From IMG/VR virus record IMGVR_UViG_3300006805_000023: a DNA stretch of 64,000 nt. One strand, written 5' to 3'. The stretch comes from a virus (taxonomy: Duplodnaviria > Caudoviricetes). The position numbers were made by a program, and so were the translations under genes. This document shows positions 33,370-54,877 of the stretch, in pieces. A model generated the notes under the pieces. The model made no database searches. It saw only the letters and a program-made list of their open reading frames with translations, and had not been told where the DNA came from. Numbering within the stretch: the stretch's first letter is position 1; each line of letters begins with the position of its first letter.

Positions 33370-34494
33370 ATGACCTCCCGTTATCAGGACCCCAAAATCG
33401 CCGAGATCTTCTCGGAAGACCGCAAGTATACCCTCTGGCTCCTCATCGAGGAGGCCTTGGTTAAAGCCCTCGCTCCGGAGGATGTCAGCAGACCGTTCTC
33501 GTCCTTCATCCAGGGGCTCCAGGGTGTTAATCTGACCAGCTTCATCAACGCCTGCAAACACGAGGAGCAAGGTACCAACCACGACGTCGGGGCGTTCCTG
33601 AACGTGCTGGAAGCCAGGGCTGACGGCTGCGTTTCTACCTTCCTGCATCGCGGCTTCACATCGTCCGATGTGGTTGACACTGCGACCAGTCTGCAGATTC
33701 ATGCTGCCCTCAGGCATATCGAGTGGCTCAAACACGACTTCAAGGAGGCCATCACGAACTCTGGAGACGCCGCGTGCGTCGGCTATACCCACGGGATGCC
33801 AGCCGAGGCGATGTGCCTCAGTGCGCGCTGGCAGCGCTGTTTCAACGAGCTGCGCGACCTACCACGGATCAAGCCGCATCTGACTGGACCACTCGGAGAC
33901 GCCAAGCATCTTGACATCGACACCAGGATCGAGCTGGCACGACTTCTCGGTTTCCATAACGATGGTGGAAAAGGCAGAGCGCCAGCCCAGCCCAACTACA
34001 TGCAGTGCTCGGAGCGGTCGGACTTTGCCAGACTGGCGTCGTCCATCGCGATCAACGGGAGCGTGCTTGCCAAGATGGCGCTCGACATGCGCCTGTTAGT
34101 GTTCAAGGGCGAAATGGGACGGGAAAAGGGGCACCACGAAATGGGCTCATCCGCGATGCCTCACAAAACCAACCCAGCTGATCTCGAAAAGGTTTGTGGT
34201 CTGGCCCGTGTGTTACGCGGCAACGCCATGGTCGCCATGGAGAACATTGAGCTCTGGTTGGAGCGCGACATCAGCCACAGCTCGACCGAGCGCATGTGGC
34301 TTCCCGACTCCTTCCACCTTTACTGCCACATGTTGACCATTATGACCAAGGCCGTCGTGAACTACAAGCCGACCCACGAAATGGGAGAGGCTCTAGTTGA
34401 TAATGAGAAGGACCTGCACACCGCAGCCAACGTGGTTCTGCTGCAAAAGCAGGGGATGGGACGCCGTGCCGCTTGGCTCAAAGTCAAAGGTTAA
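33370..34494 (+). CDS. purB: Adenylosuccinate lyase (compact, 374 aa)
   Basis: TNHDV, HRGFTSSDVVDT, THG, GSSAMPHKTNP signature, ERDISHSSTER. Confidence 0.88.
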   Translation: MTSRYQDPKIAEIFSEDRKYTLWLLIEEALVKALAPEDVSRPFSSFIQGLQGVNLTSFINACKHEEQGTNHDVGAFLNVLEARADGCVSTFLHRGFTSSDVVDTATSLQIHAALRHIEWLKHDFKEAITNSGDAACVGYTHGMPAEAMCLSARWQRCFNELRDLPRIKPHLTGPLGDAKHLDIDTRIELARLLGFHNDGGKGRAPAQPNYMQCSERSDFARLASSIAINGSVLAKMALDMRLLVFKGEMGREKGHHEMGSSAMPHKTNPADLEKVCGLARVLRGNAMVAMENIELWLERDISHSSTERMWLPDSFHLYCHMLTIMTKAVVNYKPTHEMGEALVDNEKDLHTAANVVLLQKQGMGRRAAWLKVKG

Positions 34495-34979
34495 CCGACG
34501 TCTCCGGGAGGGCTCGTCGGCACTGGCTCCGGCGATCCAATGAAGTTCTCCCAAGAGGGAAATGGGAGGGAGCCAGCTGGAACGTTGGCAAGGAACCACG
34601 TCCAGCCCTCGTGCAGCCAAATCAACGTGGCCTCAACAGTTTGTTGCCCGTTGGTCTTGAACGGGGACTTGAACAGCTTCTCCAGGCTCCCTACCTCCAA
34701 ACGCAGGACCGGGACCGTCTCATACCCGAACTTCTCCTCCAGAGCGATCCGCCAGATGTTGGCGAAGTTGTCGTCCCCGTAGTACATGCAGCGTCCGGCC
34801 TCTTGCAGGGCCGGAAGTCCGGCTATCGCCAGATACTTGAAAAAGGCCAGGACCGTCGGGTAATGGAACCGTTTCCCGTACTGACCAAGCCACCCGGTGT
34901 TGTCATCCTGGACCGGCGAAGCCGTGTACAGCAGGGGCAGCGTGGTGTACGGGTTCGAGACTGGGTCAAACTGGTTCAC
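34491..34979 (-). CDS. Hypothetical protein downstream of tail tube
   Basis: Co-oriented ORF, GTG start. Confidence 0.55.
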   Translation of the reverse strand: MNQFDPVSNPYTTLPLLYTASPVQDDNTGWLGQYGKRFHYPTVLAFFKYLAIAGLPALQEAGRCMYYGDDNFANIWRIALEEKFGYETVPVLRLEVGSLEKLFKSPFKTNGQQTVEATLIWLHEGWTWFLANVPAGSLPFPSWENFIGSPEPVPTSPPGDVG

Positions 34980-34999
34980 TCAGTCGGGATTGGGAAGGC

Positions 35000-35563
35000 C
35001 TAGACGTCCAGGATCTTAGGATAGCAGATGTCGCAGGACAGCTCGACGTTGATCATCGCCGGAGCGTCGGACTCGTGGTCGAACTCGTCCGGGGTGAGCT
35101 TCTTGATGAACAGGCCACGGCAGACCCACACGCGGTTGCGGTAGGCACCAGAGTCAACGATGCCAGGGGCAGCAGCCGGGTCCATCCCAGGAGGGAGCAG
35201 CATCAGGCTGCCACGTCGCTTGTAGTCGCGAGCGCGACCGATTGCGCCGGTGGCTGGGTTGTACACCTGCCTGAACCAAGCAGCCAGGCGATCCAGCACG
35301 TCGGTGTCAAGGTAGTCGTAGAAGGAGATCGCCATGTTTTCAGCCGACTCCATGGCACCCGCATATTTGACGGGAGTGTTGAAGGCCTTGATGGCTGGGT
35401 TGGTAACGCCGATCCCTGGAGGACGCACGTTCTTAACAGACAGAACCAGCAAATCACCTCCGGTGTCGGGGATGATGAGCGCGAAGTTGGATTTGCGTTG
35501 CGGTTCGAACGCTCCGTTCTGAGCCAACAGCGAGTTCCCAGCGAAAGGTGACATGAGTGCCAT
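35000..35563 (-). CDS. Tail tube protein (T4 gp19-like)
   Basis: FEPQRKSNF, VKYAG, ISFYD, W..QVYNPATG, DYKR.G.L, W.C.GLF; TAACTAT 6 nt upstream. Confidence 0.8.
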   Translation of the reverse strand: MALMSPFAGNSLLAQNGAFEPQRKSNFALIIPDTGGDLLVLSVKNVRPPGIGVTNPAIKAFNTPVKYAGAMESAENMAISFYDYLDTDVLDRLAAWFRQVYNPATGAIGRARDYKRRGSLMLLPPGMDPAAAPGIVDSGAYRNRVWVCRGLFIKKLTPDEFDHESDAPAMINVELSCDICYPKILDV

Positions 35564-35569
35564 ACGCTG

Positions 35570-35593
35570 ATAGTTACAGACGCTTCTAAATAT
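35570..35593. promoter_or_regulatory. Divergent pair of putative late promoter motifs (TAACTAT on -, TAAATAT on +)
   Basis: Both lie in a 39-bp gap, 6 and 9 nt before their ATGs. Confidence 0.6.
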
Positions 35594-35602
35594 CTGCAGA
35601 CT

Positions 35603-36028
35603 ATGCTTCCCCACACCAAGATTCTGGTTGAGATTACTAAGCTGACACGAGCCCTGCAGGCTGACACCAACCTGTACCCAGTCACAATCATGATCAGGGC
35701 TACCCCGTCGGGAGTCTTGGAGGCTGGAGTGAAGCGCGACAATGATCAGCACGAAATGGCGCAGACGCAGCGAGCCATCCAGCACTACGTCAACAAGTTC
35801 TCCAAGGCCAGGGCCGCTGCCAATCCAGACCAGACTCTGAGGCGCAGGCGTCCGACCGGTGGTGGCTCGATTGTTCAGGTTGAGAACCCTCAGGCTGCCC
35901 TGCGCGAGCTTGCCAAGCTGATGGGAGGTGCGATGAGCGGACCCGATCGTGGCCAGCTCAGCATGAGCGTCCAAGCCAAGTCCCAAGAAGACCTGCAGCG
36001 AGTCTTCGACTCCCTGCACTCAGTATAG
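35603..36028 (+). CDS. Hypothetical protein
   Basis: ORF with late motif upstream. Confidence 0.6.
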   Translation: MLPHTKILVEITKLTRALQADTNLYPVTIMIRATPSGVLEAGVKRDNDQHEMAQTQRAIQHYVNKFSKARAAANPDQTLRRRRPTGGGSIVQVENPQAALRELAKLMGGAMSGPDRGQLSMSVQAKSQEDLQRVFDSLHSV

Positions 36029-36066
36029 GGATTGCGGTTGAGACAGGCCGCGTTTTTATTACACGA

Positions 36067-36366
36067 ATGAGACTCATTGCAATCCTCACAGAAACCGCGC
36101 CCCCGGCTCAGCAACCCTCGGTCGTCGTTGACCTGACCCGCCTCAGCCGCAGACGTGGGGCTTACTCTGGCGTGGCCGTGATCGGCGACGAGTCCAAGGA
36201 GGCTTACGGGACGGACGGCTCTGTGTCCAACATCATGGATGAACTCACCCAGAAACTGGAGAATGACCTGGGCGGTTACTTCGACGATGACGTCACTCTC
36301 CGCTGTGGCAGGAAGTACAGGGTTAGCAGGCAGGGTGAGGCTCTTGTGAGCCAGGTCATTCCTTAA
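36067..36366 (+). CDS. Small protein with head-targeting-like leader
   Basis: MRLIAILTE N-terminus. Confidence 0.55.
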   Translation: MRLIAILTETAPPAQQPSVVVDLTRLSRRRGAYSGVAVIGDESKEAYGTDGSVSNIMDELTQKLENDLGGYFDDDVTLRCGRKYRVSRQGEALVSQVIP

Positions 36367-36373
36367 TGGGGGA

Positions 36374-36402
36374 TTGACAAGCGCTAGAGTGCGTGCTAGG
36401 TT
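36374..36402 (+). promoter_or_regulatory. Sigma70-like early promoter
   Basis: TTGACA-17-TAGGTT with TGn; ATG 5 nt later. Confidence 0.75.
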
Positions 36403-36407
36403 CCTGA

Positions 36408-37325
36408 ATGAAGGAACGATTCACAGACAAGGTTTTCAAAGACGAGCAGATGAAGATGATCCGTTGGGCCGACGGCGTCCTGACCAAGTACCAGAAGGAA
36501 GGCTATTCTATGACGGTGCGTCAGCTGTTCTACGCCGCCGTCAGCATCAACTTGCTCCCGAATGTTCAGCCTGAGTACTCGAAGCTCGGGGACTTGCTGA
36601 CAGACGCCCGACTGGCTGGCTACCTCGACTGGGACGCTATCGTGGACCGTGGCCGCATGACCCGCGAGATCGACACCTACGAGTCTCCGCTCGCTATCAT
36701 GCGGCAGACGGTCAGCCGGTTTAAGACCGACAAGTGGCAGAGCCAGTCCAACTACGTGGAGGCCATGATCGAGAAGCAAGCCCTGGAAGGCGTGGTGGCT
36801 CCGGTCTGCGCTAAGCTCGAAATCCCGTTCACCTCTAATAAGGGCTACGCATCTTCGACGATCGCTTACGACGTTGCCAAACGCTTGCAGGAGCGTCGTC
36901 GGGCCGGTAAGATGGTGCACATCCTCTACGCCGGAGACCATGATCCATCTGGGCTCGACATGGGGCGCAACCTCAAGGAGCGCTTGGAGCTGCTCAGCGA
37001 CGGGACCGTTTACATCCACCGGATCGCCCTGAACCGCGACCAGATCGACCATCACCACCTCCCCGCCAACCCTGCAAAGGATAAGGACCCGCGCTATCCA
37101 GCTTATAAGGAACTCCATGGTAAGGACTCCTGGGAAATGGACGCCCTGCCCCTCGAAGAATTGGCTGGAGTCTTCACGAAGTCCGTCATGCAGCTGCGCG
37201 ACGAGCGCCTCTGGCAGCGCGACTTCCAGGCTCAGGAGGAAATGCGTGACCAGCTGCAGGCTATGCAGGAAGAGCTTGAGCCCACGAAGAAGGGTGGCGA
37301 CGACTTCAAGTTCCGCCCTCTCTGA
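36408..37325 (+). CDS. TopoVI-A/Spo11-like TOPRIM protein (DUF2399-like)
   Basis: TVRQLFY winged-helix Tyr, IEKQAL, KGYAS, YAGDHDPSG, RIALN, WEMDAL. Confidence 0.75.
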   Translation: MKERFTDKVFKDEQMKMIRWADGVLTKYQKEGYSMTVRQLFYAAVSINLLPNVQPEYSKLGDLLTDARLAGYLDWDAIVDRGRMTREIDTYESPLAIMRQTVSRFKTDKWQSQSNYVEAMIEKQALEGVVAPVCAKLEIPFTSNKGYASSTIAYDVAKRLQERRRAGKMVHILYAGDHDPSGLDMGRNLKERLELLSDGTVYIHRIALNRDQIDHHHLPANPAKDKDPRYPAYKELHGKDSWEMDALPLEELAGVFTKSVMQLRDERLWQRDFQAQEEMRDQLQAMQEELEPTKKGGDDFKFRPL

Positions 37326-37332
37326 TAAGGAC

Positions 37333-37361
37333 TTGACAAGCGCAAGATTGTGTGATAAGTT
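37333..37361 (+). promoter_or_regulatory. Sigma70-like early promoter
   Basis: TTGACA-17-TAAGTT with TGn. Confidence 0.75.
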
Positions 37362-37393
37362 TCACCCGGCTTTCTAATCACGACTCCCACAGC

Positions 37394-38287
37394 ATGAACA
37401 GCGACTCCACCGAACCCGAACTCTACGACTCCGACGATCAGGAACCCTCAAGCTCCAGCTCCGCCGGAGGCGAAGAGGCCAAGCAGAACCTCCGCAAGCT
37501 CCACGAGGTGGCTGACGGGGATGCCGCCAAGCTCGTCAAGATGCTGGTGCTGGCTCAGAACAGCAACAGCGAAGGCGAGCGCACTGCTGCCCTCAAAAAG
37601 GCCAACGAGTTTGCGATCAAGAAACAGATCGACCTCGCCAGCATCGAAATGGAAGGCCTGGGTGAGACCAAAGGTCAAGCTGGGCTCTCCAACGAGCCTT
37701 TCGTGTCCACCAAGCACAAGACCGCCAAGAAGGACTGCCGCCGTCCCCCTTGCCACAAGTTCCTGAGCTGGCTTCTGGTCCGTCACTTCCGGGTGGATAT
37801 CCTGACTCATGGCAAGTGGGCTGCCTCCACGATCACACTCATCGGACGTCAGTCGGACGTGTCCTTCGCGATCTACGCCTATGACTTTCTGGTCGAGACC
37901 TTCAACCGTCTGTGGCGCGCTTACAAACAACGCACCAGCGCCAACCCAAGCGACCGCAACGCTTACTTTTACGGCCTCTACTGCCGTCTCCACGACACAC
38001 TCGTGAAAAGCACCGAAGAGACAATCCGTCAGGAACTGGCTCAGTTCTCTGAGGAGACTAAGGCTGCTCAGAAATGGGACGTCATGGTGATCGAGGAGAA
38101 GGACCTGCTCCAGCAGGCCACCAAGGATCACCACCCGACCGTCAAGTATGTGAAAGGTCCTGACATCGGACCCATCACCGACAAGAACATCATGTATGAC
38201 GGCATGGAGGACGGTAAGAAGATCGAGATTAACCGCCCCCTTGACAAAGACAGCCAGAAAGCCGAAAAGTCCGCCCTACCAGAATGA
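37394..38287 (+). CDS. DUF2786-like domain protein
   Basis: KLVKMLVLA.NSNSEGE..AALKKA..FA.K..ID; IGRQSDV; AYFYG; YMDGMEDG-like end. Confidence 0.65.
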   Translation: MNSDSTEPELYDSDDQEPSSSSSAGGEEAKQNLRKLHEVADGDAAKLVKMLVLAQNSNSEGERTAALKKANEFAIKKQIDLASIEMEGLGETKGQAGLSNEPFVSTKHKTAKKDCRRPPCHKFLSWLLVRHFRVDILTHGKWAASTITLIGRQSDVSFAIYAYDFLVETFNRLWRAYKQRTSANPSDRNAYFYGLYCRLHDTLVKSTEETIRQELAQFSEETKAAQKWDVMVIEEKDLLQQATKDHHPTVKYVKGPDIGPITDKNIMYDGMEDGKKIEINRPLDKDSQKAEKSALPE

Positions 38288-38661
38288 TGCTCATCTTCTC
38301 CAGACCTATGACATGTGCGCTCCTCATGGCGAGCACGCACTTGTTAGCGAGGGACGGTCAGGTTCTGCTCGGAGTCGAGCTGGAATCTGACCGGGAGAAG
38401 ATGGACGCAGCCCTGAAGGCAGCGGCTATCGAGTGGGAAGATGCCAAAAATAAGGCCGCCCTGATGTGGGACAGCGACTGGCTCCCACCTGAAAACTCTC
38501 CGTGGCTGCCTGACTGGCAGTCCCTGAACGAACTTCGTCACCCGGTGTTCTTGCCGGTGTCGATGGACACTAAACATACTTTGGCACCAGCGATAAGGCG
38601 CTTCCTCCTATACGGCAGTATGGCGACAAGGGGCACGGCTGCGTACCGTGTAAAAACCTAG
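38284..38661 (+). CDS. Hypothetical protein
   Basis: ATGA overlap with previous gene. Confidence 0.5.
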   Translation: MMLIFSRPMTCALLMASTHLLARDGQVLLGVELESDREKMDAALKAAAIEWEDAKNKAALMWDSDWLPPENSPWLPDWQSLNELRHPVFLPVSMDTKHTLAPAIRRFLLYGSMATRGTAAYRVKT

Positions 38662-38674
38662 TGTATGTGCAAGA

Positions 38675-38712
38675 GCGGGAGGGCTGACAACAGTCCTCCC
38701 GCGTCTGTTTTC
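38675..38712 (+). terminator. Probable terminator hairpin
   Basis: GCGGGAGGGCTG-ACAA-CAGTCCTCCCGC then GTCTGTTTTC. Confidence 0.6.
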
Positions 38713-38724
38713 TAGATTCGTCTT

Positions 38725-40305
38725 ATGCTGCCCTCCACCTCTCCCGTCCCCTCCCCACACGATCTGGTTTACCTTGAGCTGATGCGCCGTATCCGAGCGC
38801 ACGGTGACTACCGGATGGAACGCACCGGCACTGGTGCCTATTCGTTGTTCGCCCAGCAACTGCGCTTCGACCTGACGGACGGTAGCTTCCCGCTGCTGAC
38901 TACTAAGAAGGTCCACCTGCGCTCGATCATCCACGAGCTGCTCTGGTTCCTGAAGGGCGACACCAACATCAAGTACCTCAACGACAACGGCGTGACGATC
39001 TGGGATGAATGGGCCAACCCGGACGGCGACCTAGGACCTTGTTATGGCTATCAATGGCGTCAATGGGGGGAGTGGTCCACTCAGCGTTTGGAAAAGAAGG
39101 CACCTGTCGTTAAACGTCTGGAGGATGAAATCCCGCCTTTCTGCGACTACGATGTTTCCCTCCCTGAAGCCCCGGTCATTACCGATGCTGGCAAGGACGA
39201 GCGCAACCGCGCTCTCGTAAAGGTCGTGTTTCCACGTTCCTGCTACTCGTACACGATTCGAAAGGACCACGCCGAGAGGGGAGTGCGCGACCCCTATGCA
39301 CCGTCGAAGTGCGGAGTTGGCTGTCTCGGCGAGGATGAGAGGACGCTTGGGATTCCGGAGACAGTCCTCAAAAACCTCATCGCTTGCTGGAACAAAATGA
39401 TGGAACGCTGCTACGATCCGAAGTGCAAGGAATACAGGTTCTATGGTGCCATCGGAGTCAAGGTGTGCCGTCGCTGGCTCTGCAGATCCGCCTTCCTGAG
39501 CGACGCCACCAAGCTCCCGTGGTTTGAGCAAAAGTCGAAGGATCTGGCTGGATACCAGCTAGACAAGGACCATCTGGGAGACAGCACTTATTACTCGCCG
39601 ACCACCTGCGCTTGGGTTCCTGAGTGGGTTAACTCGGCTTACGCTCATACGCAGCCCTTCGTGGCGACAGCTCCGGACGGCACAGAGTATTATCACATTT
39701 CGCCTAGCGTGTTTGGCTCGATGCATCAATTGTCGGGGCATTCGATCTGCCGTTGTTTGCGTGGTGAGAGGCCTCACCATTTCGGCTGGAAGTTCTGCCC
39801 TGTTGAGGATCGAGGTCTGCGCTTTAGCTCCCCCACTGATCAGATCAAGCAGCTGGTCGAGGGCATCGTCAAAAGCCCTTACGGGAGACGCCACATTGTG
39901 TCGGCCTGGAATGTGAAAGACTTGCCCACGATGAAGCTCCCACCCTGCCATTGCCTGTTCCAATGCTTCGTCTCCTCGAAGGGCCGCCTGAGCCTCCACC
40001 TTTACCAGCGCTCCGCTGACTACCTGCTGGGCGTCCCCTTTAACATCGCGAGCTATGCGTTGCTGCTGCTCATGCTGGCTCAGGCCACTGGGAACAAGCC
40101 AGGCGAGCTGGTCATCACGTTCGGCGACGTCCACCTCTACTCCAACCATCTGGAGCAGGCCGACCTCCAGCTGTCCCGCGCCCCGTTCGGAGCGCCTCGA
40201 ATGGAGATCGGTGACTCAAAGGACATCTTCGGTTTCAAGTATGAGGACTTCAAACTGCTGGACTACACCTCCCATGCTTCCATCAAGGCCGCCATCGCCG
40301 TTTAG
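38725..40305 (+). CDS. thyA: Thymidylate synthase with in-frame endonuclease insertion
   Basis: RTGTG, FPLLTTKKV, ELLWFLKG, IWDEW, RRHIVSAWN, LPPCH, YQRSAD..LGVPFNIASY, GDVHLYSNH. Confidence 0.93.
   Translation: MLPSTSPVPSPHDLVYLELMRRIRAHGDYRMERTGTGAYSLFAQQLRFDLTDGSFPLLTTKKVHLRSIIHELLWFLKGDTNIKYLNDNGVTIWDEWANPDGDLGPCYGYQWRQWGEWSTQRLEKKAPVVKRLEDEIPPFCDYDVSLPEAPVITDAGKDERNRALVKVVFPRSCYSYTIRKDHAERGVRDPYAPSKCGVGCLGEDERTLGIPETVLKNLIACWNKMMERCYDPKCKEYRFYGAIGVKVCRRWLCRSAFLSDATKLPWFEQKSKDLAGYQLDKDHLGDSTYYSPTTCAWVPEWVNSAYAHTQPFVATAPDGTEYYHISPSVFGSMHQLSGHSICRCLRGERPHHFGWKFCPVEDRGLRFSSPTDQIKQLVEGIVKSPYGRRHIVSAWNVKDLPTMKLPPCHCLFQCFVSSKGRLSLHLYQRSADYLLGVPFNIASYALLLLMLAQATGNKPGELVITFGDVHLYSNHLEQADLQLSRAPFGAPRMEIGDSKDIFGFKYEDFKLLDYTSHASIKAAIAV
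39067..39834 (+). mobile_element. HNH-type homing-endonuclease-like domain inserted in frame in ThyA
   Basis: WNKMMERCY...YGAIGVKVCRRW, LDKD, YSPTTCAWV..VN, C-terminal SICRCLRG..HFGWKF; about 256 aa between QWRQW and TDQI. Confidence 0.8.
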
Positions 40306-40384
40306 TCCTAATGGTGAGTTTCAAGTCTATCAAGACAACTCACAAGGCCCAGTCGTCATAGCTCAACACCCATTTCCTCCACTC

Positions 40385-41773: not shown

Positions 41774-43066
41774 ATGGCACCCGCTACAACACCACTCCCA
41801 CAAAACGTCCTCCCACCACGCGTCCTCAGCCCCGGCAAGATCGCCGCAGTCCTGGATGCTGGCTACGGCTCCTCTTCCAAAGGCCTCGTGTCGGCCTGGA
41901 TCACCAAGAACGAGCGCCCTGACTTCCTGCTCACCGCCAACGGTCGCAATTCCTCGCACACCGTGGTGGATAACTCCCTGAAGGCCTCCCGCGAGGCCAT
42001 GACACCATGCCAGCTCAAGGGCGAGTTCGTCTTCAAGGTCCTGCCGGTCGGAGCCTTCTACAACAAGTGGAAGGGCTACAACCCGATCATCTACATTGGC
42101 CCCGGTGCCGCTTTTACGGTCGAGGACCTCGTCAAGGAAATGAAGGCCTGCGAGCTGGACAAAACGCAGGTCTGGGTCCACCCGCTGGCATCGGTCGTCA
42201 CGGAGGCCGACATCGGCTATGAAAACGGCACTTGGGACTTCGACGGCAACCCACGCCCGCAGATCGACCACGACTCCGGCACCACCAAGCACGGCACCAC
42301 GGGCTCCGGCGTCGGAGCAGCTCGTGCCAAGAAGTCTCTGCGCAAAGGCAAGCAGTGGTATGATGTCTCCGACCAGCCTACGATGGGGCAGAGCGGCCTG
42401 ATGTTCGCCGACACCTTCGAAGAGGCCGTCCTGAAGCGCCTGGCTCTCGGCAAGACCGGCCTGCTGGACGGTTCTCAGGGTTACCTGCTGAGCCTCTACG
42501 GGAAGTTCTTCCCACACTGCACTTCACGCCCCGTCACCCTGGCCTCATTCTTCGCCGACATCAACCTCCCGGTCAGTGTGATCGGCAACGTCTGCGCGGT
42601 GGCCCGCACCTTCCCAATCCGGATCGCCAGCGTGCGCTATTTCCTGGACAACCAGCCCGTCACCCTCGCCGAGAAGGTCGAAGCGGAGTCGAGGGGCCTG
42701 TTCGTCAATACTGTGGACTCCAACTCCGGTGGCTGGTATCAGGACCAACGCGAGTTGACTTGGGAGCAGGTCAGCGAACAGGCCGGACGCCACATCGAGC
42801 CTCAGCTCACCAGTCTGACCAAGCTGCCACGTCGGATCGCCACGTGGTCCAAGGCCGCGATCCGCGATTTCCTGCTGCACAACGCCCCGCCGTGCGGCTG
42901 CAAGACTTACTTGTTTGTGACCTTCACGAATTATCTGAAGGGCTCCGAGATGAAGCACTGGATGCACCAGAACATCCATGAACTGGACGACGCCGTAACC
43001 GAGGTGCTACTGTCCGACTCCCCGGAGACTGACAGCGTGCTGCCACTGGTGCGGGACTTTGAGTGA
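41774..43066 (+). CDS. purZ: Divergent PurZ-type (adenylosuccinate synthetase family) ligase
   Basis: DAGYGSSSKG (Ser at the PurA catalytic Asp position), NSSHT, KVLP, DGSQG..LSL..FFPHCTSR, ARTFPIR, SGGWYQDQRELTWEQ, TSLTKLPRR, TFTNY. Confidence 0.8.
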   Translation: MAPATTPLPQNVLPPRVLSPGKIAAVLDAGYGSSSKGLVSAWITKNERPDFLLTANGRNSSHTVVDNSLKASREAMTPCQLKGEFVFKVLPVGAFYNKWKGYNPIIYIGPGAAFTVEDLVKEMKACELDKTQVWVHPLASVVTEADIGYENGTWDFDGNPRPQIDHDSGTTKHGTTGSGVGAARAKKSLRKGKQWYDVSDQPTMGQSGLMFADTFEEAVLKRLALGKTGLLDGSQGYLLSLYGKFFPHCTSRPVTLASFFADINLPVSVIGNVCAVARTFPIRIASVRYFLDNQPVTLAEKVEAESRGLFVNTVDSNSGGWYQDQRELTWEQVSEQAGRHIEPQLTSLTKLPRRIATWSKAAIRDFLLHNAPPCGCKTYLFVTFTNYLKGSEMKHWMHQNIHELDDAVTEVLLSDSPETDSVLPLVRDFE

Positions 43067-46548: not shown

Positions 46549-46573
46549 CAAAATCGCTAGCCCAGTTTATTTT
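46545..46573 (+). promoter_or_regulatory. Sigma70-like promoter
   Basis: TTGACA-17-TATTTT; ATG 5 nt later. Confidence 0.55.
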
Positions 46574-46578
46574 ACGAG

Positions 46579-47295: not shown

Positions 47296-47315
47296 CCATC
47301 TGATTTCTCGATTTG

Positions 47316-48755
47316 ATGACACAAGGAGCAGTCTTCTTCACGTGCGGGTCTAGCCATTGCGAGCGCCTGCTGGTAGCCATTCATTCACTTCGTCTGCAGC
47401 ACCCGCTGCTGCCGATCGCCGTAATGGCGCTGGACGACGGCAAGGCCCCTGCAGGGTTCTTCGATCACCTGCAGCAGGACAACGTGCAGGTGATTATGTT
47501 CGACCCGCAACCGGGATACAGTGCGCTGTGCCATAAGATCCGGTCGCTGCATTACGCCCCGTTCGACATCAACCTCTTCATCGACGCCGATATGGTCATC
47601 ATGGCTCCGCTCGATGAAGCCTTCAAGGTCGTCTCGGAGTCAAAGACTGTAGGCCTCGCCTTCGTGAACTTCGCGAACTGGCGCTCAGACGGCAACTCGA
47701 TCAGCAAGCGCATCCGGAGGTTTGCTGGGTTGATCGACAGCCACGCGATCGAAGCCGCAATCCAGCATGGCCCAGCCATCAACGTGGGTTCGTTCGTGTT
47801 CCGTCGTGGTCACCGCTTCCTGCAGGAGTGGGAGGACGGCACCGTGCTCGGAGCCAGGCACCGCGTGTTCATCCCCGACGAGATCTACGCGCAGGTCTCA
47901 TTGCCGCAGCTGGTCGCACTCGGCGAGGCTGTGGTACTCGGCCCTGAATGGGGTGAGTCGGTCCGTTACCCGGTCTGCAAAGAACCGAAGATCGTCCACT
48001 ACCACGGCGACAAGCATGATGGCAAGTATCCGCTGTGCGACGTCTGGCGCAAGATGCGCGACCAGAGCAAGTCCGGCAAGTTCCAGTACGCCGACAACAC
48101 TTTGGTGGTAGCGGTCGATGCAGCTTACTACAAGACCTTCTCCAAGTCTCTGGCGAACTGGCGTCAACACAACGTCATGAACGGCCTGCGCACCCTTCTG
48201 ATCCACGACGGGTCGTTGACTCAGGAGCAGATCGACCAGACCGGTTTCGAGCGTGCCGTGGTATACCAGAACCCACACACCAAGACCCAGCGCGCCCTGA
48301 TGCTCAACAGCTTCATGTTGTGCGCCCCGTTCGAGGTCGAGACCCCTTACTGGACCAAGCTCGATGCCGATTGTCAGGTTAGCCCGGAGACGCGCCTGTT
48401 TGAGTCCGCAAAATGGCGCGGCTACGACGTGGTGTCACACCGATGGGGCTACACCAAGCCAGCCGCTTGGGTCCCGACCTTGGAAGCATGGCGCAAGTCC
48501 AAAGGCGTCGGCAAGCAGTTCATCCAGGACTGGGAGTTTGACGCGCAGGCTGAGAATCGCACCTTCAGATCGGCCCGCATCCAGAGCTTTGCGTGCTTCC
48601 ACAACACCGCCTCATCCAGGGCCATGGCTGCTCCGGCGGTGGCCGACGGAGTCCTCCCGGTGCCTTCGCACGACACCTATCTGTGGTTCATGGCCGAGGC
48701 TCTCGGCTACAAGATCGAAAGGGTGAACTTGCACAAGTGGGGCTTCCGCCATTAA
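47316..48755 (+). CDS. Two-domain GT-A glycosyltransferase
   Basis: FIDAD DxD motif, IVHYHG, second WTKLDADC motif. Confidence 0.7.
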   Translation: MTQGAVFFTCGSSHCERLLVAIHSLRLQHPLLPIAVMALDDGKAPAGFFDHLQQDNVQVIMFDPQPGYSALCHKIRSLHYAPFDINLFIDADMVIMAPLDEAFKVVSESKTVGLAFVNFANWRSDGNSISKRIRRFAGLIDSHAIEAAIQHGPAINVGSFVFRRGHRFLQEWEDGTVLGARHRVFIPDEIYAQVSLPQLVALGEAVVLGPEWGESVRYPVCKEPKIVHYHGDKHDGKYPLCDVWRKMRDQSKSGKFQYADNTLVVAVDAAYYKTFSKSLANWRQHNVMNGLRTLLIHDGSLTQEQIDQTGFERAVVYQNPHTKTQRALMLNSFMLCAPFEVETPYWTKLDADCQVSPETRLFESAKWRGYDVVSHRWGYTKPAAWVPTLEAWRKSKGVGKQFIQDWEFDAQAENRTFRSARIQSFACFHNTASSRAMAAPAVADGVLPVPSHDTYLWFMAEALGYKIERVNLHKWGFRH

Positions 48756-48763
48756 GTATCCGG

Positions 48764-49036
48764 ATGCGAACCGCTGACCAGCTCGTTGAAAACCTCCTCA
48801 ACGAAGAGCCCAAAACCCCGGTGGTGGATTTTAATGACCCAGCCTTGCACGAGGCTGCAACCGAACATGGTGTTGCCCTGACACAAAGGCACGTCTCTTT
48901 GTGGAACAAGGAGGGCAACTTCGCCAAGATCCCGCTTCTGACGTCCCAGTTACTTGACTGGTTCTCAAACCATCGAAGCGCTGACTATTCGTTCGAGACC
49001 TACTTGGCAGAGGATCAGCCCGGAGAAGACGAGTAG
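48764..49036 (+). CDS. Small acidic protein with head-targeting-like leader
   Basis: MRTADQLVENLLNEE; TAAGTAT 4 nt upstream. Confidence 0.55.
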   Translation: MRTADQLVENLLNEEPKTPVVDFNDPALHEAATEHGVALTQRHVSLWNKEGNFAKIPLLTSQLLDWFSNHRSADYSFETYLAEDQPGEDE

Positions 49037-49052
49037 AGTTCTTAGACGCTGC

Positions 49053-50948
49053 ATGACGCAGCTCCTCGAACTCGAACTCTTTCAATTCTTCGCCCTTCGG
49101 CACGTAACCATACGACTTGACAATCAAGGACGTGTCCTAGTGGTCGGCCCCAACGGTGCCGGTAAAACCGCGATGCTGATCGAAGGCCCTTATTACGCCC
49201 TGTTCGGCCAATCCTTTGAGTACGGGCCGAGACCGGGTGACTCAGTGGGCAACCGGTTCCACAAGTCCTTCCTGACCCGCATCGACTTTGAGACCGCTGG
49301 TCAGACCTACCGGGTGATCCGGACTCAAGGAGTCAAGGAGTGCCAGGGGCTCAAGCTCAACCGCAACGGCCTGTTCCTGTTCAGGCAGGAGGAGCGCCAC
49401 CAGAGTCAGTGGGTTGATATGAGTCTGTCCAAGGCGGTTGACACCCAAGCGGCTATTGACCGGCTGGTAGGGATGACCGCTCTGACCTTCACGAACACCA
49501 CGACGTTCAGCTCAGACGTGCTGCGGCTGCCTGACTTCCCAGATGCAGAGAAGAAGCGCATCATCAACGACCTGCTCGGAGTCGGGAGCTGTGACACTGC
49601 CCTGAAGACCACCACCAAAATAATCGCCGACATCAACCAAGAGGTCACCCTCAAGGAGGCCTTGCATGCTGTCACCAACAACTCGGTGAAGGACGCAGTC
49701 AGGCGGGTAGCTTCTCTGGAAGAATCGGCCCTGGAGTGGCAGGAGGAACTGGAGCGCAAGGCGCAGGAGTTGGCCACCCGCAAGGAGCGCCTGGCTTCCG
49801 ACTTGAAGCTCAAGGAGGACTCACTGGCAGCCCTGACCTCAAAGACCGCCAGCGCCCGACTCTCCATCACAGAGTCCAAAGAGAAAATCATCGTGCACCG
49901 TAAGCGAATCAAGCGCTTGTCTGAGCTGTCCGACCAGTCCAAGCTGGACAAGCCTGGACTGGGCGACTCTGGCCGGATTCGCCAGAAGCTGGATGCGGCT
50001 AAGTCTGGGGCCTGTTCAGAGTGCGGCAAGCCGTTTGACGAGAAACTGGAGCCAGAGAAGCACGCCAAGCACGTCAAGGGGTTGCTCGATGAACTCGCGG
50101 CAGCCGTAGCTAAGGAGAAGCAGGAAATGGCTGACTGGAAGGTCACAGATGACGCCGTGAACAAGCGCAGGGCCAAAGAGATCTCGGATCTCGACACTGA
50201 GGAGTTGAGTCTGGAGTCAGCCAACGAAACGGTTATCAGGCTGGACCGACAGGTAGCAGAGACTGACGCTCGGATCTTTTCGCTCAAGGAGCAACTGGCG
50301 CAGGCCGACGAAGACCCGCCGGAGCAGCAGACCAACCCGCACGAGGCGCAGCTCAAGAAGGCCACCGAGGAGCTGGAGGAGTACCGCGCAAGTTCCGCCA
50401 CAACAGCAGAGCAGCTACAGGTCCTCAAGGAACGCTTGTCCAAGGAGAAGCTGTTCCAGGAGTTGTTCGGCAACCGTGGGTGCCGGGTCAACCGCCTGGA
50501 TGCTGCCCTGCCCTTCCTGAACGAGAAATGCGCCGAGGTGTCCAAGCAGCTGCAGACCGGAATCAACACCAGCTTCGTGATCCGTGGTGAGGACGAGTCC
50601 TACGCTAACACAGTGGAGGTCGTGGTGGACAACCCAATGGGGGCTGGTCAGTATCATGGCAACAGCGCTGGTGAGCGCCGTCTGGCCGACCTGATCATTC
50701 TGTTTTCGTTGCTCTCCCTTGCCACAGCGAGCCACGGGGCGATCGGTCAGGCCTTCTTCGACGAGACGTTCGAGAAGCTGTTCCCATCCATCAAGAACAA
50801 CGTCATGAAGGTCATCGGGGCCGTCAACCAGCAACGCAACTCCGTCTTCATCATCTCGCACGTAACCGAGGGACTGAGCCTGGAGCTGATCGACCAGATC
50901 TGGTCGGTAGCGAACGGGGAGATTGAGGTGGAAGACAGGCGAGGCTAG
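49053..50948 (+). CDS. SbcC/Rad50/gp46-like SMC ATPase
   Basis: GPNGAGKT, coiled coil, CSEC zinc hook, NSAGE signature, FFDE Walker B, ISH. Confidence 0.9.
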   Translation: MTQLLELELFQFFALRHVTIRLDNQGRVLVVGPNGAGKTAMLIEGPYYALFGQSFEYGPRPGDSVGNRFHKSFLTRIDFETAGQTYRVIRTQGVKECQGLKLNRNGLFLFRQEERHQSQWVDMSLSKAVDTQAAIDRLVGMTALTFTNTTTFSSDVLRLPDFPDAEKKRIINDLLGVGSCDTALKTTTKIIADINQEVTLKEALHAVTNNSVKDAVRRVASLEESALEWQEELERKAQELATRKERLASDLKLKEDSLAALTSKTASARLSITESKEKIIVHRKRIKRLSELSDQSKLDKPGLGDSGRIRQKLDAAKSGACSECGKPFDEKLEPEKHAKHVKGLLDELAAAVAKEKQEMADWKVTDDAVNKRRAKEISDLDTEELSLESANETVIRLDRQVAETDARIFSLKEQLAQADEDPPEQQTNPHEAQLKKATEELEEYRASSATTAEQLQVLKERLSKEKLFQELFGNRGCRVNRLDAALPFLNEKCAEVSKQLQTGINTSFVIRGEDESYANTVEVVVDNPMGAGQYHGNSAGERRLADLIILFSLLSLATASHGAIGQAFFDETFEKLFPSIKNNVMKVIGAVNQQRNSVFIISHVTEGLSLELIDQIWSVANGEIEVEDRRG

Positions 50949-50953
50949 TTTTC

Positions 50954-51841
50954 ATGATGGACCGAAAGATTATCATCGGGGGCCTCCCCCACCACGGCAA
51001 GACCACCATAGCAGGCATCATCGCGAGCAGGTTCGGAGTGACCTTCGCGAACACCTCGGACACCATCTACGAGCAGGTCGCCAAGGACTACGGCAAGACC
51101 GTCGAGGAGGTCCACGCGATGGATAAGGAGAAGCTGCGCCCGGAGCTGATCTTCGTGGGCGACACTCTGTGCAAGGTGCACGGCCTGGCCTATCTGACCC
51201 TGAAGCAGCTCGAAAAGCACGACGTGGTGTGCGGCGTCCGCAAGCCGCAGGAGCTGGCTCTGGTCCGGGCCGCCTATCCCAACTGCCTGTTTCTATGGGT
51301 GATCCGCCCCGGCTATCCGACGATCAAGGATAGCACCCAGCTTTCCCACAAGGACGCTGATCTGGTGATCATGAACGCGGGATCGGTCTCCGACCTGGAG
51401 TCACAGGTAACGTCTGGACTGGTCAACAACAGCCTGGGTCTGAGCCACCCCGGCAACAGCTTGTGGAACCTGCTGCACTGGTTCGCCTTCCAGCGTGACT
51501 GGAACGCACTGGAGCGCACCAACTTCATGCAGGCCTTTGAAACCCTGCTGTTCATCACCGGCAAGTCCTGCCCGTGCGCCATCGAGTTCCAGGCGATCAA
51601 GAAGGTCCTTCCGCCTCCGGCTGGGCACGACGAGTTCTGGAACTGGACTTTGCTGGTGCACGACTGGGTCAACTATAAGCGCGGCGTGCCTACCCACTGG
51701 GACTGGACCCAGGGCCATCCAGGGTTCAAGATCCTCAAGGAGGCGTTCTCATCTGGAACCGCCGAAGGCATCCTGTCCGGCACCTCTGTCCCAACCCAAC
51801 CAGCAACCGACCTCACTTACTGCGCGCCATGCTCAAAATAA
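50954..51841 (+). CDS. dNMP kinase-like P-loop domain fused to an Erv1/ALR-like sulfhydryl oxidase domain
   Basis: GGLPHHGKTT, GVRKPQE, IMNAGSVSDL; then GNSLWNLLHWFA, CPCAIEF, W..LVHDWVNYKRG, terminal CAPC. Confidence 0.65.
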   Translation: MMDRKIIIGGLPHHGKTTIAGIIASRFGVTFANTSDTIYEQVAKDYGKTVEEVHAMDKEKLRPELIFVGDTLCKVHGLAYLTLKQLEKHDVVCGVRKPQELALVRAAYPNCLFLWVIRPGYPTIKDSTQLSHKDADLVIMNAGSVSDLESQVTSGLVNNSLGLSHPGNSLWNLLHWFAFQRDWNALERTNFMQAFETLLFITGKSCPCAIEFQAIKKVLPPPAGHDEFWNWTLLVHDWVNYKRGVPTHWDWTQGHPGFKILKEAFSSGTAEGILSGTSVPTQPATDLTYCAPCSK

Positions 51842-52602
51842 CAACCAACAGCCTCAACCAGGAGCAGCTTAAGGAGCTGTTCGGAAACCACCTCGAAGTG
51901 TGCGTGTCAGTCCACAACTTTGAGCGTCGGTGGTGCTGGCAGCTGTCCAGCCTGCTCGAACAGGGAGCGCCGGTCCTGGTGACGGCAGCCTACATTATGG
52001 GCACCGGCACTCCGATGGTGTCAGAGGTGGCCGATTACTTCAACGCGATCAACCCTGGTAATCTTTACGTGCGCACCATGATGTACCCGGATCACGAGCG
52101 CTTCCAGTTTCGCGGTCTGGTTCGCACCGATCAAGTCAAGGTATCGGTCGGTAAGCGCCTGCTATTCACGGACGCTGACATGCTGGTACCCCCTGGCTGG
52201 TGTGAGGCCGCACTCAACCCTGAGTTCCCGGACCACCTTTGCTTGCACACGGGACGGTACTCCACGCTCTTGGACGAGACCAACCGGGTTGTAAATGGTC
52301 TGGAGTACCCGGTGCGCGTCGTGAGTGCCTGGGACACAGTGTCCGGAATGGAGGCTGTCAGGATGGCCGACATCGGTGCCGGATTCTGCCAGATCATCGG
52401 CGGCGACTTCATCCGCGACCGTGGCTACTACGTCAAGGAGGAGGAGAACCGCGACGGGCGCTGGGAAAAACGTGCTGTGTATCGCTCAGACAAGCAGTTC
52501 CGAGTCTCCACGGGCAAGCAGGCGGTACCACTCCCTTACATGTTCCATCTTCAACATGAGCGCGACACCACAGCAGGCTGCCACCTTACCCACCAGCGCT
52601 AA
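51829..52602 (+). CDS. GT-A (GT2-like) glycosyltransferase
   Basis: LLFTDADM DxD motif, GFCQI, FHLQH. Confidence 0.7.
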   Translation: MLKITTNSLNQEQLKELFGNHLEVCVSVHNFERRWCWQLSSLLEQGAPVLVTAAYIMGTGTPMVSEVADYFNAINPGNLYVRTMMYPDHERFQFRGLVRTDQVKVSVGKRLLFTDADMLVPPGWCEAALNPEFPDHLCLHTGRYSTLLDETNRVVNGLEYPVRVVSAWDTVSGMEAVRMADIGAGFCQIIGGDFIRDRGYYVKEEENRDGRWEKRAVYRSDKQFRVSTGKQAVPLPYMFHLQHERDTTAGCHLTHQR

Positions 52603-52897
52603 GCCGCTGGTCCTAGCCTGGACGGCACCGGCACCCCCGGATTCAACCTGCAGCTACGATCACTCCACGGCGGAGACGCTGTTTGGGCGCTTCTTGATAA
52701 CCTGGAAGGGCTGGAAGATTCTGCCCGAAAATCTGGCGTGGGGTGAGAGCCCAGGCGATCCTGGATACACGCTTGATGAGACCCCGTGGGGTGAGTTTGA
52801 GTGCAGGGGGTGGGACTCCCTAGAAGAAGTCCAGAGGTGGGCGGAGGACGAGCTGGAGCGTCGGATGCGGCTCCAGCTCGAAAAGTTCACCGCTTAG
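52556..52897 (+). CDS. Hypothetical protein
   Basis: Trp-rich ORF (YDH...ITWKGWK); start uncertain. Confidence 0.5.
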   Translation: MSATPQQAATLPTSAKPLVLAWTAPAPPDSTCSYDHSTAETLFGRFLITWKGWKILPENLAWGESPGDPGYTLDETPWGEFECRGWDSLEEVQRWAEDELERRMRLQLEKFTA

Positions 52898-53910
52898 AGG
52901 ATCGAGAGCCTGCTGGTTGACAGGTGTTCCATGACGTCCTTGCGATCCTGATCACACCACCGGCAGTCGGCCATGTTTTGAAACACCAGATCGTGCTCCT
53001 TGGCGACGTTGGTACCCAGAAGCACCGGGTTGTCAGAGTTGATGGTGACTGGGATCTGCAGGCGTGCTGCCACAACCAGGGCCGTGTTAAGCTCCTGCTT
53101 GGAGATGGTCTCAGTCCGCAGGCAGGCCGTCGGGCAGACCTCGAAAGTGACCTTGCGCAGCCGCTCCATCTCTGGCTCATTCAGCTTGATGTGAGCAAGC
53201 GATTTGAGCAGGTCCAGGCCGTGGCCGATCCGCGTAACGCCCCCGATGACGTCCAGGACGTTCAGGACGTTCATCCCAGTGTCACGTGCTTCACCGACGT
53301 GGTAGGTCAGGAACAGACCCTTTGAGTAGGCTTCGTGGAGGGGAGGCAGCATGTTCCTGGCAATCCAGTCCTTGTCGCGCTCCTGACCGGTCTCGGTCCC
53401 GCAGATGTCGAAGCCGTCGGCACCGGCCTCAATGGCAGCACGCACGGAGCCCCACAGGACCGAGACCGGTTCACGCCGGTCCGCGCACACGATCAAACGG
53501 GTCGAAATCCCGTGGCAGTCACCGGCGTCGCTGAGTCCCTGACGGGCCGCCCGGATCAGTGGCACCAGCATGTCTGGGCCACGCCGGTAGGGATCGAAGC
53601 GCATGTCGATGTGCTGCAGCTTACCGCCGGTCATCAGGTACTGGTGGACCACGGCCTCGAAGCATGAGCGCCTCACGGCGTCCGGACCCTGCTGAATGTC
53701 CTCCACCATGGCGTGAGGACCGCTCTTACGGCTCAGAAACTCATCATGAGTGGTCGTGTTGTGCTTGGTCTTGGTCATCAATTCCTCCAGTTCAATCGAG
53801 CTGAGCATGGCCAGCTTGCGCCCGGACCGGTAGGCCAGCTCCCAGAGGATGTGTGGTGGAGTTGAGCCACCGAGGTGGCAGTGAAAGTCACAGTATTTAG
53901 TTTGCTGCAT
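52894..53910 (-). CDS. Adenosine/AMP deaminase-family amidohydrolase
   Basis: DFHCHLGGS, MRFDP, GFDICG, TYHVGE, RIGHG, EVCPT, INSDNP. Confidence 0.85.
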   Translation of the reverse strand: MQQTKYCDFHCHLGGSTPPHILWELAYRSGRKLAMLSSIELEELMTKTKHNTTTHDEFLSRKSGPHAMVEDIQQGPDAVRRSCFEAVVHQYLMTGGKLQHIDMRFDPYRRGPDMLVPLIRAARQGLSDAGDCHGISTRLIVCADRREPVSVLWGSVRAAIEAGADGFDICGTETGQERDKDWIARNMLPPLHEAYSKGLFLTYHVGEARDTGMNVLNVLDVIGGVTRIGHGLDLLKSLAHIKLNEPEMERLRKVTFEVCPTACLRTETISKQELNTALVVAARLQIPVTINSDNPVLLGTNVAKEHDLVFQNMADCRWCDQDRKDVMEHLSTSRLSIL

Positions 53911-54877
53911 AGACGGTTCCAAGTTTGATGCGTTCCTCGATTTTTGTGCGGTTGACTTCGGCCAGTTTCTCCACTGTGATCCCAAGCTCGTTGGCGGTGG
54001 CTACCAGATAAAACAGCACGTCGCTAAGCTCGTCAAGCATCCGGTCTTTTGCGCGGTGGCCGAGATCACTGGCGCTGACCTGGGAGCTGTTGATACGGCG
54101 CATCACCTTTTGAACCACTCCGAGGACCTCGCCGCCTTCGCTGGCGAGCCCGGAGGTCGTGTAAACCAGTCCGGACGGGTACTGGGCTACTCGTTTGACC
54201 CAGCCCTGGTAGGCGTCGAGCTGAGCAATCATGGTGTCCTCCTCAAGGGTGAACTCCATCGTGCAGCCACGGTCCGGCGGTGGCGAGGTGCGCAGCCGCA
54301 TCCCGAAGGACACCGCCTCCTTGGCGAGGAAGGCCACCAAGTGCGTGCTGGTGAGGTCTGAGTCCTGCACAGTGAGCACTCCAGTTTCCAGCTCGACCGT
54401 GGCGGTCGGGAAGTTCTTCTGCAGCAAGATGGCGAGCTTGCCAGCTACCACCTGAAGGGACGGCCCGAATGACACCGTGGCCCCGTTCTCGAACAGAGAT
54501 GAGAGGTCTGGGCGCGTGTAGCCCTCACCCTTGATCCACTTACCAGTAGGGTCGGCCAGATGGCCGGTCTCCGGGTCGCCCTTGGTGCAGTTTGAGCGGT
54601 GCACCTCGTCCCAGGCCAGCTGCATCACCGGAGCGATGCCGAGCCGGTTGGCAAGCTGGAAGATGAACACCAGCGCGTCGATCAGACAGTCGGTCGTGTG
54701 GGTCAGGCGCTCCCGTTCCGTCGGGAGGTCCTTGGCCTCGTCCAGCTCGGTCTGCAGCTCCTCCTTGAAAAAGGCCTGGTAGGTTTGAACGACGCTGGCG
54801 TCGAAGACGGGTTTGCCTGCCAGCGGGATTCTCCACTTTTCGGCAAAGGCGCGGATGTCGGATAGTTGATTGACCAT
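53897..54877 (-). CDS. Tandem MazG-like (all-alpha NTP pyrophosphohydrolase) two-domain protein
   Basis: Domain 1 EELQTELDE..IDALV..DEVHRSN..K..GKWIK..Y..PDL; domain 2 GLASEGGEV..DELSDVLFY..N..KIEER; overlaps deaminase start by 14 nt. Confidence 0.8.
   Translation of the reverse strand: MVNQLSDIRAFAEKWRIPLAGKPVFDASVVQTYQAFFKEELQTELDEAKDLPTERERLTHTTDCLIDALVFIFQLANRLGIAPVMQLAWDEVHRSNCTKGDPETGHLADPTGKWIKGEGYTRPDLSSLFENGATVSFGPSLQVVAGKLAILLQKNFPTATVELETGVLTVQDSDLTSTHLVAFLAKEAVSFGMRLRTSPPPDRGCTMEFTLEEDTMIAQLDAYQGWVKRVAQYPSGLVYTTSGLASEGGEVLGVVQKVMRRINSSQVSASDLGHRAKDRMLDELSDVLFYLVATANELGITVEKLAEVNRTKIEERIKLGTVYAAN

Follow-up and report, generated by a model that had tools for sequence, protein, structure and literature searches.

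A divergent PurZ-type synthetase and a candidate, more autonomous pathway to 2-aminoadenine DNA in a large T4-like phage

A 64,000-nucleotide (nt) stretch of viral DNA (IMG/VR record IMGVR_UViG_3300006805_000023, here called the window) encodes a divergent PurZ-type synthetase together with a PurB-like lyase, a tandem MazG pyrophosphohydrolase whose gene overlaps that of a deaminase of the adenosine deaminase (ADA) family, and a deoxynucleoside monophosphate (dNMP) kinase. We consider it somewhat likelier than otherwise that these genes are the core of a more autonomous pathway to DNA that carries 2-aminoadenine (Z), with MazG and the deaminase disposing of adenine nucleotides. The candidate pathway genes are scattered over 21 kilobases (kb) between structural genes:

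33370-34494, plus strand: phage PurB-like adenylosuccinate lyase, 374 amino acids (PF00206, 1.8e-17)
41774-43066, plus strand: divergent PurZ-type succino-2-amino-deoxyadenylate synthetase, 430 amino acids (NF038379 and signature residues)
50954-51841, plus strand: T4-gp1-like dNMP kinase, a candidate kinase for the monophosphate of Z (dZMP) (phrog_139, 6e-14; PF21448, weak)
52894-53910, minus strand: ADA-family zinc deaminase, 338 amino acids (PF00962, 3e-27)
53897-54877, minus strand: tandem MazG-type nucleoside triphosphate (NTP) pyrophosphohydrolase, 326 amino acids (phrog_671 over residues 5-132; phrog_229 over residues 215-322)

Genes were identified by profile searches of the window proteins against Pfam, NCBIfam and PHROGs. 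The window has 59% G+C and densely packed genes, and its PurZ-like protein is on record within a 218,247-bp contig; the virus is therefore a jumbo T4-like myovirus. No near-DNA match was found among 50,697 GenBank phage records, nor did an IMG/VR pattern scan find relatives of the window, and the sequencing runs that contain its sequence are wastewater metagenomes (at contig level only). In the same GenBank records, homologues of the PurZ-like protein occur in 75, of the PurB-like protein in 29 and of the deaminase in 2; because homologues are this rare, the gene set in the window is not due to chance. As relatives we fetched 80 metagenome loci, 52 loci from species genomes and several assembly loci (numbered here with the prefix L), and searched their open reading frames (ORFs) with phmmer and jackhmmer; the flanks were 10 kb and the numbers are small.

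The synthetase and its partner genes

The PurZ-like protein scored 161 bits against the PurZ model NF038379, versus 72 and 45 bits against PurA models. It also matched phrog_1211 (5.7e-36), and its best PDB matches were the PurZ proteins of PhiVC8 and S-2L. One report names S14, F12, T262, F295 and Y298 as the residues that separate PurZ from PurA (10.1101/2025.10.22.683976). The window protein has Y31 and S33 at the positions of F12 and S14, T346 at that of T262, and F384 and Y387 at those of F295 and Y298; S-2L PurZ has a Tyr at the position of Y31 as well. S33, which lies in the sequence GYGSSSKG, aligns with PhiVC8 S14 at the site of PurA Asp13 and is invariant in 21 homologues. This site is Ser in 100% of phage PurZ, and Asp13 is 99% conserved in true PurA (PMC12884076).

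In a phylogenetic tree, the window synthetase fell in a subclade of 21 rows (support 100) nested in a 109-row clade (support 88) that we call long PurZ. Its members come from large phage contigs, up to 354 kb, of wastewater, lakes and sediments, and include one isolate, Flavobacterium phage MaF61. Canonical PurZ formed a separate clade (14 rows, support 100), and the long-PurZ clade lay opposite PurZ0 and PurA. Three motifs were compared in a 180-sequence alignment. They read GDEGKG/G/KLDV in E. coli PurA, GSEAKG/T/MVDS in Hiyaa PurZ0 and GSTGKG/T/FxNY in canonical PurZ, and the window protein and nearly all of about 120 aligned long-clade sequences have GSS.KG/T/FxN[YW]. The Asp13 site is Ser in every aligned long-clade row and Asp in E. 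coli PurA. Both the residues and the profile support a synthetase of PurZ type, one that lies outside both characterised PurZ groups, and the PurZ-like gene proposed at 41774 in the initial annotation was confirmed with that assignment.

In the species-representative genomes, all that we found were PurZ0-like genes of distant relationship, many located on chromosomes of Acidobacteriota; they gave no clue to the host. A PurZ0-like synthetase, about 360 residues long, is encoded on dozens of chromosomal contigs of this phylum (L093-L139; Terriglobia, Bryobacteraceae; sizes up to 5.5 Mb). It contains GLDY and G[SG]EGKG motifs, the latter with Ser or Gly in the Asp13 position, and may represent a cellular or prophage PurZ0-like family.

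The PurB-like lyase scored 195 bits against TIGR00928, under the cut-off of 326, and all of its best PDB matches, down to 4e-35, were adenylosuccinate lyases. In an alignment with the solved adenylosuccinate lyase 8JBD (4e-35), it retains the fumarate-lyase signature with its catalytic Ser, as GSSAMPHKTNP, and the catalytic His in THG. Its C-terminus is about 60 residues shorter than that of cellular PurB (374 versus 430-456 residues), a shortening that is conserved, since the same length of 374 residues recurs in L003; the 374-residue homologue adjoins PurZ in L002/L003. PurB-like genes lie near long-clade PurZ in the window, L002/L003, L145, MaF61 and L050-L058. The earlier suggestion that the phage supplies its own lyase therefore holds up, with a PurB-like gene recurring alongside the long PurZ clade in at least four lineages. 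A phage-encoded PurB as such is already known, because the annotations of Ghobes and Hiyaa, two PurZ0 actinophages, include a PurB-like lyase; we found no literature that discusses phage PurB in PurZ0 phages.

The tandem MazG protein consists of two all-alpha domains with an alpha/beta part between them. Pfam detected the C-terminal domain only (PF03819/PF12643; PF03819 at 1.4e-6 over residues 210-328), and acidic metal motifs of the type EExxE...ExxD (EExxE / DxxD) are visible in both halves. The protein has the four-helix MazG domain and the metal motif. An orthologous relationship to a known MazZ type was considered and rejected, as neither hhalign nor Pfam gave specific homology; PF18909/PF04447 matched gp40 of SH-Ab 15497 and had no match in the tandem MazG. 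Close homologues are confined to immediate relatives of the window phage. The AlphaFold model, with a mean predicted local distance difference test (pLDDT) value of 51.6, was too poor for a fold search.

The deaminase proposed at 52894 was confirmed as an ADA-family member, with its start corrected from 53985 to 53910. Read directly in the sequence, its ATG falls within the 3' end of the MazG gene, so that the two genes overlap by 14 nt, which predicts translational coupling of the deaminase to MazG. In L143, whose deaminase is 71% identical, the 14-nt overlap of the two genes is kept exactly and PurZ lies 9.5 kb away. All metal and catalytic residues of the deaminase are present (HCH, HVGE, RIGHG and Asp295, the D of SDNP) and are invariant in the alignment. 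The site of the 5'-OH-binding Asp19 (HLDG) is Gly, and that of the N7-binding Asp296 (DDP) is Asn; both are Ser in L002. Because these two changes are common to the roughly 50 nearest representative relatives, the deaminase is assigned from sequence to an uncharacterised ADA subgroup. The ADA equivalog models gave 102 bits against a cut-off of 217, and no PHROG family matched. The nucleotide-acting ADAL and AMP deaminase likewise lack the first Asp, and by analogy the loss of the 5'-OH-binding residue would suit a phosphorylated or base-only substrate. The AlphaFold model (pLDDT 89.6) had a template modelling (TM) score of 0.78 to adenosine deaminases in Foldseek, with adenine deaminase, ADAL and CRISPR-associated ATP deaminases ranking closely behind; nucleoside-, base- and nucleotide-acting relatives were not separable by this search. 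The enzyme is rare: only 3 representatives out of 1.8 billion reach E<1e-30. We found no literature linking an ADA-family enzyme with PurZ. In L149 (9217-10942), a T4-like contig, the gene of a deaminase of the same HxHLGG/TD. subgroup overlaps that of an RmlD-like epimerase, adjacent to the capsid gene; there is no PurZ within 10 kb of it.

The gp1-like kinase is fused to a C-terminal domain of the Erv1/ALR-like sulfhydryl-oxidase type (PF04777, 1.6e-4, residues 169-245) that contains CPC and a terminal CAPC. The gene is syntenic in L004 and L143, and a guanylate kinase takes its place in L002/L003/L008. With either kinase present in relatives, the idea that the phage brings its own kinases stands for this gene; it does not extend to thymidylate kinase (Tmk), which is unlinked to PurZ.

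Gene neighbourhoods tie several of these families together. The loci L002/L003/L008, whose PurZ is 57% identical to that of the window, carry a block of about 12 kb that comprises PurB-like, guanylate kinase, ThyX, PurZ and ADA-family deaminase genes, the deaminase 0.5-1.7 kb from PurZ. In the sister subclade, 13 loci encode a 209-residue protein (YLAGP...D...GTxEE) beside PurZ; its gene lies directly upstream of PurZ and belongs to a conserved block that also has three genes of unknown function (for example L014, 8667-9293). This protein matched the NDT-fold DmtZ domain of Streptomyces phage Hiyaa gp69 with an hhalign probability of 92.6%. A protein that Pfam assigns to DUF4406, a family that we take to belong to the NDT-like clan, is encoded near PurZ in L146 and L144; an hhalign comparison of the L146 protein with the mid-clade NDT-like profile aligned the N-terminal YLxGP motif only. 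The slot near PurZ is occupied by the deaminase in the window, L143, L002/L003 and L008, and by NDT/DmtZ-like genes in the other loci just named. The two were never found together in the sampled 10-kb flanks, a pattern that comes from small numbers. The proposed co-occurrence of the gene families with purZ in relatives was borne out for PurB-like, kinase and deaminase/MazG genes, and failed for Nudix, Tmk and the phosphoesterase.

Other genes of the window and its relatives

Five further genes complete the feature list:

20609-21397, plus strand: metallophosphoesterase (phrog_547, 3e-35, residues 3-194)
21420-22100, plus strand: thymidylate kinase Tmk (PF02223, 1.2e-36; TIGR00041, 136 bits, above cut-off)
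24505-25932, minus strand: T4-type major capsid protein Gp23
32909-33334, plus strand: Nudix hydrolase (PF00293, 3.3e-20; phrog_1198, 7e-27)
38725-40305, plus strand: thymidylate synthase ThyA (PF00303, 2.4e-107 in two stretches, and PF22083)

The initial annotation had assembled eight genes into one purine-rewiring set. Seven of them were recovered at their coordinates; the eighth, a phosphoesterase-MazG-like fusion, had no family support as such, because the C-terminal 78 residues of the phosphoesterase matched no MazG family and a MazG identity for them was rejected. Membership of the pathway could not be upheld for three of the genes, which did not co-occur with PurZ in relatives: neither Tmk nor the phosphoesterase was found near PurZ in related loci, and no related locus had a Nudix homologue near PurZ or PurB, although in the window the Nudix gene lies 36 nt upstream of the PurB-like gene. 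We regard all three as genes that a large phage ordinarily has for nucleotide metabolism, Tmk serving general dTTP supply. About 230 extra residues, inserted in frame into ThyA, carry an endonuclease motif of the I-HmuI NUMOD-like kind; the close relative L004 has an insert-free ThyA of 299 residues.

The capsid protein Gp23 is at most 32% identical to any protein in the 50,697 GenBank phage records. Other structural and replication genes of the window encode a prohead protease, baseplate proteins, an intein-bearing terminase and a 5'-3' exonuclease. The large terminase-like protein (1130-4411, plus strand, 1093 residues) has a LAGLIDADG intein inside it, and L002/L003 encode a similar, likewise intein-bearing protein of 1038 residues. 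The window also encodes a Cpn10/GroES-like co-chaperonin (17523-17960, plus strand) and a matrixin-type (M10) metallopeptidase (57444-58040, plus strand). Two ORFs of 261 residues (55526-56311 and 61452-62237) were compared as possible paralogues and showed no relation.

A Mom-like protein (23080-24396, plus strand) combines a Pfam Mom domain with a weak restriction-endonuclease-like N-terminus. Such a protein directly adjoins PurZ in six other divergent loci (L002/L003, L011, L030, L040, L062 and L068; at 8516-9880 in L002, 9118-9960 in L011, 8372-9910 in L030, 8026-9876 in L040 and 9088-9909 in L068). A role in a further base-modification step was considered and rejected, since PHROG families of homing endonucleases match the protein as well and Campylobacter phages have homologues of it that are Hef-like homing endonucleases in multiple copies. 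The gene probably encodes a mobile endonuclease with the neighbourhood of PurZ as its target.

Proposed pathway and alternative explanations

Poubanne et al. (2026) reported that lineages of Z phages recruited different enzymes for two common jobs, the return of dATP and dGTP to monophosphates by MazZ, DUF550-DUF5664 or DutZ, and the removal of adenine nucleotides by DatZ or by DmtZ, which cleaves dAMP (PMC12884076). By analogy, a MazG-fold pyrophosphatase coupled to an ADA-fold deaminase would fit this scheme as a further convergent pair. The pathway that we propose, in which substrates and order of steps are predicted from the protein families, would run as follows. The tandem MazG would convert dGTP, and probably dATP too, to monophosphates. 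PurZ would condense dGMP with aspartate, using ATP or dATP, and the PurB-like lyase would release dZMP, which the gp1-like kinase (guanylate kinase in relatives) and host NDP kinase would convert to dZTP, placing Z in the virion DNA. Adenine would be excluded by MazG and the coupled deaminase instead of the HD enzyme DatZ. The deaminase would turn an adenine compound, most likely dAMP (dAdo, adenine and dATP are other candidates), into its hypoxanthine form; the pair might act in the order dATP to dAMP to dIMP, or deamination might come first. The phage lyase and kinase would free the branch from dGMP to dZTP from host PurB and Gmk. Of the variant, more autonomous pathway suggested initially, PurZ, the PurB-like lyase, the kinase and the MazG-deaminase pair remain plausible parts, and the unlinked Nudix, Tmk and phosphoesterase genes drop out.

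Several observations weigh against this pathway. The synthetase scores below the cut-off of NF038379 (161 versus 300 bits), the long-PurZ clade lies outside both characterised PurZ groups, and its join to canonical PurZ is weak (28 in the Shimodaira-Hasegawa-like approximate likelihood ratio test, SH-aLRT). As the initial annotation had noted for DatZ, phmmer found no DatZ in the 64-kb window of the roughly 218-kb genome, and it found no S-2L-type MazZ or DpoZ there either; a DatZ could be encoded elsewhere, in the roughly 154 kb of the genome outside the window. None of the 33 long-clade loci of at least 12 kb had DatZ or S-2L-type MazZ, and no DpoZ was seen within 10 kb of PurZ in long-clade loci; the same search, as a control, detected DatZ (1e-9 to 1e-20), MazZ and DpoZ in canonical PurZ loci. 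At the same time, the absence of DatZ and MazZ from these 33 loci supports the initial suggestion that other enzymes may take the part of DatZ. The locus L144, whose PurZ is 49% identical to that of the window, encodes a family-A polymerase with a 3'-5' exonuclease domain (1848-4361) and DnaB, 6 kb upstream of PurZ. This polymerase is 20-28% identical to DpoZ over parts only, and is not DpoZ-like. The tandem MazG had hhalign probabilities of 2.7% and 0.8% with S-2L MazZ and with DUF5664-DUF550, respectively. The deaminase is missing from most long-clade loci sampled, and its subgroup (HxHLG.../TDN) also occurs in a cellular contig and in a T4-like contig that has no PurZ within 10 kb. The paper on MaF61 states nothing on DNA composition.

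In a narrower reading, PurZ and PurB would make Z, but the MazG-deaminase pair would be a counter-defence or pool-manipulating module unrelated to adenine exclusion, one that destroys, for example, host ATP/dATP or signalling nucleotides based on adenine. In its favour, about 10 kb separate the pair from PurZ in the window, phages with canonical DNA often have MazG-type enzymes, the deaminase subgroup is found in a T4-like contig without PurZ in 20 kb, and the subgroup deaminase of L148 stands beside an Acb1-like gene. We nevertheless regard this reading as unlikely. In L002/L003/L008 the deaminase is only 0.5-1.7 kb from PurZ and within the block that holds the PurB-like and guanylate kinase genes, it alternates with NDT/DmtZ-like genes across the clade, and its extreme rarity fits a lineage-specific part of a pathway.

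We hold it to be quite improbable that the whole set is ordinary auxiliary purine metabolism, with synthetase and lyase acting as PurA and PurB to raise (d)AMP from IMP, with deaminase, MazG, Nudix and kinases in salvage or house-cleaning, and with canonical DNA. Every aligned clade member has Ser in place of the catalytic Asp13 of PurA, the ATP-type F-x-N-Y stands where PurA has its GTP-specifying KLD motif, and PurA models score far under the PurZ model, although the PurZ and PurB models both stay under their curated cut-offs and only 151 of the 481 PurA homologues in NCBI viruses belong to the PurZ group (PMC12884076). Large T4-like phages do have many nucleotide genes, and Tmk, ThyA and Nudix are unlinked to PurZ. 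However, if PurA and PurB made the very nucleotide that an adenine-nucleotide deaminase consumes, the result would be a futile cycle, and DmtZ-like genes adjoin PurZ in sister lineages.

A double purine swap is very unlikely: MazG would return both dATP and dGTP to monophosphates, dGMP would become dZMP and dAMP would become dIMP, phage kinases would phosphorylate both, and Z would replace A while deoxyinosine (dI) replaced part or all of G; the corollary, a genome of Z:T and I:C pairs that sequencing reads as ordinary A and G, is just as hard to credit. The two conversions, which are encoded together, each flip the substituent at C6, the needed kinases are phage-encoded, and dI in place of dG is natural in Campylobacter Fletchervirus phages (Crippen 2019, as cited in PMC8713573), but those phages lack this deaminase, most long-clade phages have an NDT-like hydrolase that would destroy dAMP rather than make dIMP, and MazG-type enzymes usually remove dITP.

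Comparison with known systems

Until now, Z-DNA has been associated with small viruses of the sipho- and podovirus types that have PurZ or PurZ0 together with DatZ, MazZ, DutZ or DmtZ. If the Z pathway proposed here is correct, the 109 long-PurZ sequences would be a third, large and deep PurZ clade that extends adenine replacement to jumbo T4-like myoviruses, and the deaminase, with its amidohydrolase fold, would represent a new case of convergence on adenine exclusion. With its own lyase and kinase the phage would depend little on the host for this pathway, and the enzymes would add parts for the production of Z-DNA in engineered cells.

The Z-cluster of S-2L and PhiVC8 consists of PurZ, MazZ and DatZ with DpoZ or PrimPol. 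It shares with the window the PurZ-type Ser at the Asp13 site, the ATP-type F-x-N-Y motif, an all-alpha NTP pyrophosphohydrolase, and the presumed logic of converting dGMP to dZMP while depleting dATP. In contrast to S-2L and PhiVC8 PurZ, the window protein is 70-90 residues longer, about 27% identical to them and in a separate clade, and its partner genes are dispersed over 21 kb rather than forming a compact cluster. DatZ, DpoZ and a PF04447/PF18909 MazZ are absent both from the window and from the vicinity of PurZ in 33 related loci, whereas a PurB-like lyase and a kinase are brought by the window phage. The viruses differ as well, S-2L and PhiVC8 being 40-kb sipho-/podoviruses and the window virus a T4-like myovirus of about 218 kb.

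The deaminase shares with ADA1, bacterial Add and the N6-methyl-AMP deaminase ADAL/MAPDA the TIM-barrel zinc amidohydrolase fold (TM 0.78) and keeps the metal and catalytic residues. It differs from them in sequence (less than 30% identity) and in the phage clade's Gly/Ser at the Asp of HLDG and Asn/Ser at Asp296.

Flavobacterium phage MaF61 (PQ858689, 167.8 kb) is the only GenBank phage isolate found in the long-PurZ clade. Like the window phage, it has a gene for a PurB-like lyase amid structural genes, at a distance of 10 kb from that of the synthetase; its synthetase is only 29.7% identical to that of the window, and no ADA-family gene is present anywhere in its genome. Since MaF61 is in culture, the central claim of Z in the DNA of this clade is directly testable.

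The closest functional analogue of MazG and the deaminase is the system of the PurZ0 actinophages Ghobes, Wayne and Hiyaa (PurZ0, DutZ, DmtZ, DUF5664; PMC12884076). Its PurZ0 differs from the window synthetase in retaining the GTP-type Asp motif (MVDS in Hiyaa). The two systems are alike in that a PurB-like lyase is annotated in Ghobes and Hiyaa and that sister lineages of the window have DmtZ-like NDT genes by PurZ. They would also share a two-step disposal of adenine nucleotides, in which dATP is converted to dAMP and dAMP is then destroyed. The PurZ0 phages use for this a dUTPase-fold pyrophosphatase and an NDT-fold enzyme that cleaves dAMP to adenine, whereas the candidates in the window have the MazG fold and the ADA (amidohydrolase) fold and would yield a hypoxanthine product.

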